Below, one piece after another: positions 685 to 46,250 of a stretch of 64,000 nt of DNA. Source of the stretch: a virus (lineage: Duplodnaviria; Caudoviricetes); the IMG/VR virus record IMGVR_UViG_3300020112_000604, positions 119,721-183,720 of that record, one strand, 5' to 3'. Positions within the stretch are counted from its first letter, which is position 1. Each line of letters starts with the position of its first letter. A model generated the notes under the pieces. It was not told where the DNA came from. It did not search any database and worked only from the letters and a program-made list of their open reading frames with translations. Both the position numbers and the translations under genes were made by a program.

Positions 685-717
685 AGTTACGTATTTCAGT
701 TGTATATTATTATAGTG
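685..717 (+). promoter_or_regulatory. Early-type phage promoter (TATATTAT core 703-710)
   Basis: TTTCAGTTGTATATTAT; six more copies upstream of non-structural operons; similar to the phiKZ early motif TATATTAC. Confidence 0.7.
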
Positions 718-794
718 ATAAGGAACAAGTGCATCACCTTATCTAATAAATTAAATCGCCTATGATGCAGGGCATATATGTACTTAGGAGGTAC
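717..794 (+). promoter_or_regulatory. Structured 5' leader (kissing-loop motif), copy 1
   Basis: GATAAGG/CCTTATC hairpin with loop TGCATCA; GCCT/GGGC hairpin with loop ATGATGCA; GTACTT/AGGTAC hairpin over the SD. Homologous copy at 41587-41660. Confidence 0.65.
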
Positions 795-26016: not shown

Positions 26017-26063
26017 AATTGATGTCCTCCTTTTCCGAGCAGACTTCTATCTACTTCACCCTT

Positions 26064-39972: not shown

Positions 39973-40001
39973 AGTAGGGTAGGCTTGTAGCCTACCCTAC
40001 T
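39973..40001. terminator. Bidirectional terminator, GTAGG/CCTAC family
   Basis: AGTAGGGTAGGCT/AGCCTACCCTACT. Confidence 0.8.
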
Positions 40002-40005
40002 ATTA

Positions 40006-41583
40006 TTAGTCTAACTGTTCGAACACGTGGTCGTCATTAACGATGACATGGTGTTCGCAAATCCTGATGATTTCTGGACGGTGGGTGATTACAAGTAAAG
40101 TATTCTTGCAATTCTTATCCAGAAGATTTACAGCAATCTTTTCCGTTGCATCATCGAGGTTTGATGTAGGCTCATCGAGAATGATGAGACAATCATCGTC
40201 GCATTCGCGCATCTTAAGGATTGTACGAACTATATTTATCCTCTGCTTCTGTCCAGACGATACTTTGCTGCCTCTTTCGCCCATTATGGTGTCGAGACCA
40301 TTGTCAAGTTCGTAATGAACCCAGTTTCCAAGACCGAGTTCTTCAAGAAGCTCTTCAATCTCTTCGTCAGAGTGTTCAACGCCAAGGTTAATGTTTTCTC
40401 TGAGTGAAGTGTCAAGAAGTTCTGATTCCTGATATACATAGAATGTCTTAACCGGATTGAAATCGGATGCTTCTACTGTACCCACAATAGCATTTGCTAA
40501 TGTCGACTTACCTAAACCAGATGAGCCAGTAATTACGGTTCTTGAACCATAATTAAAGTCAAGCTTAGGAGCCTTGAAGATTGTCTTAGTTCCATCTTCC
40601 TTTGTATAACCAAAGTGGAAGTTTCTAAGATGTAACCCCTTCTTTATAGACTTCTTAACTTTTGTATCTTTGTCCTTGAGACATTCGAGATGCTCAAGAT
40701 TTTCATTGAGAGTAGCAACTATATCTACCGAGTCGAGTATGAAGTTTACACTACCCATGAATGATGACACTGATGTAAGTAAGATTGTACCAAGTTCAAG
40801 TCTGTTTTCTTTTGGTATCATCATTACTCCGAAGAGTGTCGGAATTAAGAATACGAGATATGAAATCTGGTATCCTATGTGTCGACAAAGCTTTGATGAA
40901 TACGGCATATAACCGTCCTGAACTTCGTTAAGCTTCTTAGCGGCATAAGCTTCCTTACCGAGGAATCTAAGAGTCTTGCTATTGAGGAATAAGTCTACCT
41001 TGGTGCCTCTGATAGCAGCTCCTCTTTTGCTGCATTCCGTGTATCTTATCTGACCGCATAAAATGCCAATTGCAGACGATAATATGATTGCTGCTATAGG
41101 GATCGTCATGATGACTCCGCAGTGAGCTTTAATCATCTTATACAGCACCGCTAAAAATGGAGAAAATACTGAAGGAAGCTTGATGGCATTAACCACGATG
41201 TCCTTCTTGGACTGTGACACGGCTTCTATATATGACGTAATCGTGCCCGAGTTCATGCCAGTAAGCTTAGCTGAATAATATTCCTGCATCATTTTGCGGT
41301 CAATACTATTCTGGTACTTAAGGCCGAAAGTTCTTGTCCAGTTGTGTGAAAATGATGCAACCAGGCATAGAACGATTTCAATTGCAATTTCCACTGCAAT
41401 CCATTTGAATAAACTGTCCGAGTTTAACGAGCATATGAGTTTAGCAAATGCCATAGTCACACACACGCCAAGGAGTGTTTCCATGAGTCTTGCAATACCC
41501 ACCAATGTGCCTTGTCTTCCGAGAGATAATGCTCCGAACCATCTACTCTCTTTGGTTGTGTGATTAATCTTAAATGTTTTCAT
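40006..41583 (-). CDS. ABC exporter (fused TMD plus NBD), start moved to 41583
   Basis: About six TM helices; GSSGLGKST, SSGQKQR, ILDEPT and ITHR motifs. Confidence 0.92.
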   Translation of the reverse strand: MKTFKINHTTKESRWFGALSLGRQGTLVGIARLMETLLGVCVTMAFAKLICSLNSDSLFKWIAVEIAIEIVLCLVASFSHNWTRTFGLKYQNSIDRKMMQEYYSAKLTGMNSGTITSYIEAVSQSKKDIVVNAIKLPSVFSPFLAVLYKMIKAHCGVIMTIPIAAIILSSAIGILCGQIRYTECSKRGAAIRGTKVDLFLNSKTLRFLGKEAYAAKKLNEVQDGYMPYSSKLCRHIGYQISYLVFLIPTLFGVMMIPKENRLELGTILLTSVSSFMGSVNFILDSVDIVATLNENLEHLECLKDKDTKVKKSIKKGLHLRNFHFGYTKEDGTKTIFKAPKLDFNYGSRTVITGSSGLGKSTLANAIVGTVEASDFNPVKTFYVYQESELLDTSLRENINLGVEHSDEEIEELLEELGLGNWVHYELDNGLDTIMGERGSKVSSGQKQRINIVRTILKMRECDDDCLIILDEPTSNLDDATEKIAVNLLDKNCKNTLLVITHRPEIIRICEHHVIVNDDHVFEQLD

Positions 41584-41586
41584 ATT

Positions 41587-41660
41587 GTACCTCCTAGTAC
41601 TAGTGCCTTGCATCATAGGCTATTGTAATGTATAAGGACGATGCATTCTTTGCCCTTATC
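41587..41660 (-). promoter_or_regulatory. Structured 5' leader (kissing-loop motif), copy 2
   Basis: GATAAGGGC AAAGAA TGCATC GTCCTTAT...GCCT ATGATGCA AGGC...GTACT AGGA GGTAC. Confidence 0.65.
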
Positions 41661-41666
41661 AATATA

Positions 41667-41692
41667 ATAATATATAAATTGAGATCTAGAGT
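41667..41692 (-). promoter_or_regulatory. Early-type promoter
   Basis: TCTCAATTTATATATTAT. Confidence 0.65.
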
Positions 41693-41700
41693 TTCTCGGC

Positions 41701-41736
41701 AAAAAATAAAGCGAGGTAGGCATTGAGCCTACCTCG
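41701..41736 (-). terminator. Intrinsic terminator, GTAGG/CCTAC family
   Basis: CGAGGTAGGC/GCCTACCTCG plus T-run. Confidence 0.8.
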
Positions 41737-46145: not shown

Positions 46146-46250
46146 GTATGTACAGATTGACCTCTGTTCTCTTATAATATAAGGAAATATGTAAATAGAA
46201 GACGTAGCCTTAGCGTAGTCTTCTATGGGTATATCCAATCTCGGATGAAA

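Follow-up and report, generated by a model that had tools for sequence, protein, structure and literature searches.

Early genes of an uncultured jumbo phage related to AR9 are preceded, at six places in its genome record, by copies of a single RNA leader. The leader extends from the predicted +1 position of an AR9-type early promoter, and pair-preserving changes in all three of its hairpins argue that it is real, structured and conserved.

Structured leaders behind two early promoters

The DNA that we analyzed (the window, 64,000 nucleotides) is the terminal 64 kb of a 183.7-kb virus record with an estimated completeness of 75%. Genes of the record include those for a beta subunit of the jumbo-phage multisubunit RNA polymerase (phrog_2986, 4e-65), for a large terminase and for a GroEL-like protein. 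Judged by the terminase, AR9, PBS1, Goe21 and BpSp, all Bacillus jumbo phages, come closest among named phages, with identities of about 35%. Comparison of parts of the window with known phages by megablast and tblastn gave no match. Contigs of the Ga0255343 metagenome are 91-96% identical to the present genome across shared stretches; in one of them about 2.3 kb of DNA lies 3' of the ABC-transporter gene (L062:91-2385) and is missing at that site in the present genome.

The first leader in the window (copy 1, plus strand) follows an early promoter at 681-716, which matches the AR9 consensus and is composed of GGAAAGT (681-687), TTTCAG (694-699), TATATTAT (703-710) and a six-base spacer (711-716). 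The transcript is predicted to open with hairpin P1 at 717-743 (stem 717-723/737-743), whose 13-nt A-rich loop contains TGCATCA (730-736) and has GCAUCA (731-736) as its 3' end. An AU-rich linker (744-757), which measures 11-16 nt and varies in sequence in alignments of the paralogues, leads to P2 (758-773), a 4-bp stem GCCU/GGGC (758-761/770-773) closed by the 8-nt loop 762-769, which reads ATGATGCA in DNA and AUGAUGCA in RNA. UGAUGC in this second loop (763-768) is complementary to the GCAUCA of the first (731-736), and the duplex between them is calculated at about -8.6 kcal/mol. P3 follows at 780-794 (GUACU/GGUAC, 780-784/790-794; fold -3.7 kcal/mol) and holds in its loop the AGGA of the SD sequence AGGAGG (786-791). 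The first gene (800-1069, start codon ATG at 800) encodes an 89-aa protein of no family; behind it are a second ORF (1117-1455) and a two-way terminator (1474-1500).

Copy 2, on the minus strand, is a self-contained unit of terminator, promoter, leader, gene and terminator. Its upstream terminator (41736-41712) lies within the promoter region 41661-41736, where TATATTAT occupies 41674-41667 and the spacer 41666-41661. The leader (41584-41660, with G41660 as its predicted first base) forms an 8-bp P1 (41659-41652/41639-41632) with UGCAUC (41645-41640) in the loop, P2 (41620-41617/41608-41605) with loop 41616-41609, and P3 (41600-41596/41591-41587), with the SD sequence at 41595-41590. The gene that follows (41583-40006, ATG at 41583) encodes a 525-aa ABC transporter (Pfam ABC_tran 1.2e-16, phrog_2392 1.1e-45) and is followed by the downstream terminator (40001-39973). 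The strong two-way terminators at 1474-1500 and 39973-40001, with stems of 11 and 13 bp, end the two leader-driven units where they face converging genes.

Both stretches, 717-794 (+) and 41587-41660 (-), have the common layout that an earlier, sequence-only reading of this DNA had described. Taken as a whole, the module is about 125 bp long and is composed of the early promoter and a structured leader of 77-86 nt, within which P1 and P2 make up a core of about 57 nt.

Early promoters and predicted transcription start

Early promoters of AR9 follow the pattern AAATATATATTAT-N6-G(+1), which was mapped via dRNA-seq and primer extension (PMC5312081). The same rule applied here puts +1 at G717 in copy 1 and at G41660 in copy 2, at the start of P1. 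We infer the transcription start at the first base of P1 because of this consensus, which was established in a phage whose terminase is just 35% identical to the present one. The two phages agree in the core motif of their early promoters and in the 6 nt that separate it from the starting G; the present phage has in addition an upstream GTC...TTTCA part. Copies 1 and 2 can be aligned from about 40 nt 5' of the TATATTAT box as far as the start codons, at which two unrelated genes begin. A sigma-70 scan at copy 1 found nothing better than a 9/12 match (680-708), of a kind that shuffled sequences contain at least as often.

The extended motif, GTC-N5-6-TTTCA-N-TT-R-TATATTAT-N6-G/A, is found at approximately 21 intergenic sites of the record. 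Six of these sites are followed by the structured leader described here and seven by leaders of 11-18 nt that run almost directly into an SD sequence, while different leaders, 25-83 nt in length, stand at the last eight, and the majority of these open with a hairpin at +1 to +7. The claim that the five other early leaders of the window lack the element holds for the five early-type promoters with a full upstream motif; a sixth early-type match, at window position 46167, is weaker. Other long early leaders that begin with a hairpin were seen at window positions 26057, 35156, 45083 and 46167 (minus) and at genome positions 14014, 18488 and 64604.

Copy number and distribution of the leader

A BLAST search with the element located six copies in the whole record, at genome positions 13592+, 20654+, 49549+, 100857-, 120437+ (window 717) and 161380- (window 41660). 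The covariance model R1, built from these six, recovered the same six in the whole record and none weaker. A pattern scan of metagenome contigs, filtered with the model, added eight copies on seven contigs, all of the metagenome Ga0255343. Copies in further phages were reached via homologues of three downstream proteins and the contigs on which these are encoded (Logan/ENA); in those phages a 156-aa protein encoded behind one of the copies is 76% and 50% identical to its counterpart here and the ABC transporter is 57% identical. The sequence-only reading had the element present twice; it is not a two-copy duplication, and the resulting family alignment (model alignment A4) has 24 rows, among which are 20 complete copies.

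Searches in other genomes returned no member of the family. Models R1 and R2 gave noise only and no significant match on five distant IMG/VR relatives, AR9 and BpSp; thus a covariance-model search that finds the leader six times in the record and again in related phages finds no repeated structured leader of this kind in AR9 or BpSp. Every additional match from further pattern scans of viral contigs was discarded by the model, as were all matches from a scan of 185,579 species genomes, so that none was retained in cellular genomes. The sequence-only reading had not recognized a known RNA family, and this agrees with the Rfam 15 covariance models, which have no match in the entire window at gathering score and, with the limit relaxed to E 1, still leave the element unmatched in four copy-bearing loci. 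Orthologues of the ABC transporter at 46%, 39% and 33% identity are preceded by the same type of promoter and by different leaders, in which P2 and the loop motifs are absent. Three loci with the orthologous gene behind a TATATTAT-type promoter and an unrelated leader are L078:9780-10000, L079:120-336 and L080:9800-10000; inspected by eye, the L078 and L079 leaders have a 5' hairpin and a short inverted repeat flanking the SD sequence. As far as these collections show, the leader family appears to be limited to one narrow clade of uncultured phages.

Comparative support for the three helices

Minimum free energy structures calculated with RNAfold contain the identical three hairpins in copies 1 and 2. 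The stability of these folds does not exceed that of shuffled sequences (z of -0.97 and -1.45), and support for the helices therefore comes from comparison and not from energy. In the 24-row alignment 94% of the cells are occupied by standard pairs, and this value drops to 33-48% when the pairing partners are slid by 1-3 columns, a sliding and shuffling control that is not to be read as a probability.

Pairs that have changed on both sides are found in each helix across the 24 rows: three of seven in P1, one of four in P2 and two of five in P3. In P1, AAGG/CCUU is replaced by AGAG/CUCU in one orthologous pair, by AAGA/UCUU in L040 and by ACGG/CCGU in L077. The second pair of P2 is C-G in some copies and G-C in nine of the 24 rows (GCCU/GGGC becoming GGCU/AGCC), and its closing pair occurs as U-G, U-A or C-G. 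P3 takes the forms GUAC/GUAC, GUUC/GAAC and AUUC/GAAU. These compensatory changes can be counted as roughly 8-10 independent events, and every copy comes from one narrow clade of closely related sequences; on this comparison the three helices can be considered well supported, though below the level of a deep family.

The leader is also conserved in relation to the genes behind it. In front of the ABC transporter the P1-P2 core retains 95% identity in one comparison, in which the ORF has 89%, and 78% in another, in which the ORF has 64%. At the 20-kb locus the leader over its full length keeps 87% identity beside an ORF that has fallen to 65%.

Complementarity of the two loops

In all complete copies loop 1 is 12-16 nt long and ends with GCAUC(A/G), and loop 2 consists of the 8 nt AUGAUGC(A/G), so that the complementarity between GCAUC(A/G) and UGAUGC that had been noticed in the two window copies extends to the entire set. 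Six loop-loop pairs are possible, or seven where a U precedes GCAUC. The predicted duplex has an energy of -7.9 to -8.7 kcal/mol in 20 of 20 complete copies, a value matched by only 2-13 of 2000 shuffles of loop 1 (0.1-0.65%). Five of the pairs are invariant and one alternates only between A-U and G-U, while the seventh column is unpaired in 11 of the 20 copies. Since the core pairs never vary there is no covariation, and comparison cannot decide for or against a kissing helix, which we regard as plausible.

Four properties speak indirectly for this helix. The two loops are complementary and not identical, which favors pairing between them. P2 has only 4 bp and is nevertheless compensated, which suggests that it needs stabilization from outside. 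The part of loop 1 that does not pair is A-rich and 7-10 nt long, as a strand spanning a helix is expected to be, and its length varies. The distance from GCAUC to GAUGC ranges from 30 to 35 nt across the copies, a variation that an RNA linker, being flexible, would allow and a rigid DNA operator would not.

Other explanations for the loop sequences were considered and set aside. An operator at the level of DNA, with GCATC and GATGC as half-sites, was rejected on account of the 30-35 bp variation in spacing. By rough estimate a long-range hairpin between GCAUC and GAUGC (a 6-bp helix around a loop of about 26 nt) would be far weaker than P1 and P2 together, and it never appears among the minimum free energy folds of the copies. 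Upstream ORFs opening at the AUGAUG of loop 2 vary in length and phase and are not conserved. A mini-ORF that starts in loop 1, (A/G)UG-CAU-CAC-CUU-AUC-UAA, is present in only nine of the 20 complete copies; the other 11 carry AAG or ACG at the position of its start codon. Where U precedes GCAUC, as at window 729-746, this mini-ORF begins 5-6 nt after the SD-like AAGGA in P1; it has five codons within P1, or eight in the case of copy 2 and its orthologue.

The third hairpin and the SD sequence

A strong SD sequence lies 10-18 nt 3' of P2, usually in the loop of a weak P3 (-3.0 to -4.2 kcal/mol), where its AGGA is exposed and not buried. In the ABC-transporter orthologues of L062 and L077 P3 is essentially gone (-0.5 and 0 kcal/mol), while their P1-P2 cores are the 95% and 78% identical ones; the segment after P2 is only 52% identical at this locus. 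We take the function to reside probably in the P1-P2 core and regard P3 as optional and of local importance.

The sequence-only reading had proposed a pseudoknot coupled to a hairpin that occludes the SD sequence, with GCCU of P2 able to pair alternatively with AGGU of the SD sequence. This pairing is lost in nine of the 24 copies, where the P2 strand reads GGCU and the SD sequence is still AGGAGGU. No conserved, mutually exclusive pairing was found across the aligned copies, and hence no expression platform is seen. Together with the weakness of P3 and its absence from two orthologues, this leaves the proposed switch unsupported, and nothing in the leader points to a metabolite or temperature sensor, which had also been suggested.

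Downstream genes and mosaic leaders

The proteins encoded behind the six copies have, in record order, 68, 156, 103, 62 and 89 aa, followed by the 525-aa ABC transporter. Pfam assigned no family to the five small proteins, and the 89-aa protein has a marginal match of unknown function among PHROGs (E 0.0036). Terminators are located 5' of some copies, outside the conserved block.

Leaders have been exchanged between loci. At the 13-kb locus of the present genome a B-type P1-P2 is followed by the P3 block GUACUUAGGAGGUACAUUACU and by gene X1. The Ga0255343 relative has at this locus an A-type leader, whose P1-P2 is identical to that of its own 120-kb copy, and gene X2, and a third phage has a B-type P1-P2, a P3 that resembles the 100-kb copy, and again X2. 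An X1-type gene with its P3 block is found on a further contig of the relative, where the leader in front of it is different again; the relative thus has both the X1 and X2 types at different loci. The small proteins X1 (68 aa) and X2 (74 aa), encoded at genome 13678-13884, L063:8100-8318 and L040:259-500, are very divergent and have in common the motif HTT[TS]AWY.TD, so that the swap at 13 kb exchanged divergent paralogues and did not bring in a foreign gene. The leader at 20 kb shares 82% identity with that of the nearest relative, between flanks that are 94-95% identical, and it is still 85-87% identical where the ORF is down to 80% and 65%, which is the hallmark of constrained sequence repeatedly overwritten from paralogues. 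The notion of a promoter-leader cassette is supported: the module stands in front of unrelated, fast-changing genes, and its leaders are mosaic.

Six Logan contigs of related phages start in or just before a leader (L071:1-90, L072:1-57, L073:1-49, L076:1-56, L083:1-55 and L084:1-58), and the repeat evidently breaks short-read assemblies.

Possible function of the leader

The reading to which we commit, with moderate confidence, is that a knot at the 5' end protects and standardizes a subset of early mRNAs and travels with its promoter as a portable package. The AR9-type promoter in front of the structured leader would presumably be read by the injected virion RNA polymerase, and the module would serve six of the roughly 21 early transcription units. 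The RNA would begin directly with P1, and GCAUC(A/G) of loop 1 would most likely pair with UGAUGC of loop 2, clasping the first 57 nt or so into a compact 5' knot. Such a knot may shield the 5' end from decay that depends on it (of the RNase J1 or RNase Y type if the host is, as is likely, a Firmicute), and together with the strong SD sequence it may set a common level of translation. It may in addition be read sequence-specifically by some trans factor that gives the mRNAs common timing, as the invariance of the loops beside drifting stems suggests. Because one leader sequence recurs in front of unrelated genes, the copies also recombine among themselves. We arrive at this proposal from the position of P1 at the predicted +1, from the long early leaders that begin with a hairpin, from the strong SD sequence and from the known effect of 5' hairpins: 5'-terminal stem-loops combined with a strong ribosome-binding site are established stabilizers of mRNA, as in B. 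subtilis aprE and in leaders of the E. coli ompA type (references in PMC3997798). Stabilization alone leaves P2 and the invariant loops unexplained, since a plain 5' hairpin would suffice for protection.

It is precisely these loops that give weight to a possible, if rather unlikely, alternative in which the leader is mainly an operator for a trans-acting factor (a repressor or nuclease of phage or host, or a small RNA) that binds the invariant loops or the SD loop and shuts off the set of early mRNAs together. Its main argument is that the loop cores are the same in all complete copies while each stem compensates copy by copy, which suggests a constraint on loop sequence beyond pairing; if the six loop pairs drifted like the stems, several changes would be expected in them, by a rough estimate that is not a test. 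Copies distributed over unrelated genes would also suit a regulon. In other systems T4 RegA and RegB act on early messages and CsrA acts at sites with GGA in a loop, and here P3 sets a GGA in the loop of the SD hairpin and a second GGA is found at the junction of P1 and its loop in 16 of 20 copies; the first of these is contained in any AGGAGG, and a search of the phage record, 75% complete, for homologues of CsrA, RegA and RegB found none. Complementary loops, moreover, point to mutual pairing and not to two subunits of one protein. As for an antisense partner, the genome outside the leaders has no extended complement to loop 2 and only scattered 8-9-mers within coding sequence. A candidate small RNA does contain CCUCCUAAGU, the complement of ACUUAGGAGG in P3, but this 10-nt match is whole in only three of the six copies and about 0.35 such matches are expected by chance in the genome.

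The candidate small RNA lies at genome 34031-34150, about 85.6 kb before the start of the window, behind a late-type promoter of the form AACA-N6-TG. It is a stretch of about 100 nt that ends in a GC-rich terminator hairpin and has, in its single-stranded part, CCUCCUAAGU and a second CCUCC. This RNA could be a general anti-SD small RNA, and the 10-mer match is within chance.

Two further readings are less likely than either the 5' knot or the trans-acting factor. It is improbable that the RNA has no function and that the element is a recently spread, gene-converted repeat next to promoters, acting as promoter context and recombination site in the manner of T4 PeSLs. The mosaic leaders, including the A-type for B-type swap at the 13-kb locus, are what such a repeat would leave behind, and so are the six assembly contigs that end inside the element and a leader identity that stays at 82-87% at any distance and, in the nearest relative, is below that of the 94-95% identical flanks. 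A sequence that spreads without function would not be expected to keep 94% of its pairs standard, against 33-48% in the slid control, or to have a P1-P2 core that outlasts coding sequence at larger distances, nor to hold its loops fixed while the adjacent linker and the loop spacer drift. Very improbable, in our view, is a riboswitch or physical sensor, in which a ligand, Mg2+ or temperature stabilizes the loop-loop contact and alters access to the SD sequence. The leader does resemble guanidine-II in having two hairpins with conserved loops, covarying stems and a variable linker just 5' of the SD sequence, and one of the downstream genes encodes an ABC transporter; however, its loops are not ACGR tetraloops, Rfam is silent for E values as high as 1, P3 is both weak and dispensable, and no alternative pairing is conserved, GCCU/AGGU failing in nine of the 24 copies. 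The other downstream genes are unrelated ORFans without a common metabolism, and the family is restricted to a single clade of phages, with no member in cellular genomes.

To return to the 5' knot, a more speculative and on present evidence unlikely extension is that P1-P2 tags the early transcripts of the virion polymerase, either as a fold that stalls the host exonuclease acting 5' to 3' or as a sequence-specific "licence", recognized by a protein of phage or host, by which messages are kept, translated or released. Flaviviruses carry exonuclease-resistant RNAs, of which the knot could be a counterpart in a bacterial virus.

Comparison with known systems

The closest parallels in arrangement are the PeSL cassettes of the T4-type phages RB49 and phi1, which consist of a sigma-70-like promoter and a terminator stem-loop (PMC2839356, PMC4122927). 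Like these, the present modules are short, multi-copy blocks with an early promoter in front of small non-essential or ORFan genes, and they are points of exchange by which close phages differ: we found six copies, placed before ORFans and one ABC transporter, with mosaic leaders and an allele swap at 13 kb. The promoter here follows the rule of the AR9 virion RNA polymerase instead of being sigma-70-like. P1-P3 are predicted to be transcribed, being downstream of +1, and have no U tract, and the terminators are separate from the repeat; what is conserved here is a leader of three hairpins that has complementary loops and an SD sequence.

The 5' stabilizers of aprE and ompA/papA, which are cited in PMC3997798, have a hairpin at the very 5' end followed by a strong ribosome-binding site, a layout that the present leader would share if P1 begins, as the AR9 rule predicts, at +1. 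These stabilizers need no second hairpin and no conserved loops, whereas our leader adds P2 and an invariant loop complementarity. The resemblance to guanidine-II (mini-ykkC) is one of topology only, with two short hairpins of the kissing type, conserved loops, a variable linker and an SD sequence nearby. Guanidine-II has ACGR tetraloops, in contrast to loops of 12-16 nt and 8 nt with other sequences here, and our leader has no match in Rfam, no guanidine-linked genes and no visible conserved expression platform. Judged by these comparisons and by the Rfam result, the leader is an uncatalogued RNA family in which known kinds of element, a phage regulatory cassette and a structured leader, are combined.

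The modules have some practical implications. Promoter-leader blocks of this type can be joints for the swapping of fast-evolving accessory genes, and they also break metagenome assemblies. The knot might serve as a small, portable 5' stabilizer or translation element for expression in Gram-positive bacteria. The two invariant complementary loops offer a cheap and clear test that involves six base pairs.

Little is known about the fate of jumbo-phage early messages after the injected polymerase has made them. If the knot does act as a tag on these messages, AR9-like jumbo phages would have a post-transcriptional early regulon. If the knot controls stability or translation, the leader would represent a new RNA family and offer a way into the control of early genes in those AR9-like phages that infect anaerobic Firmicutes.
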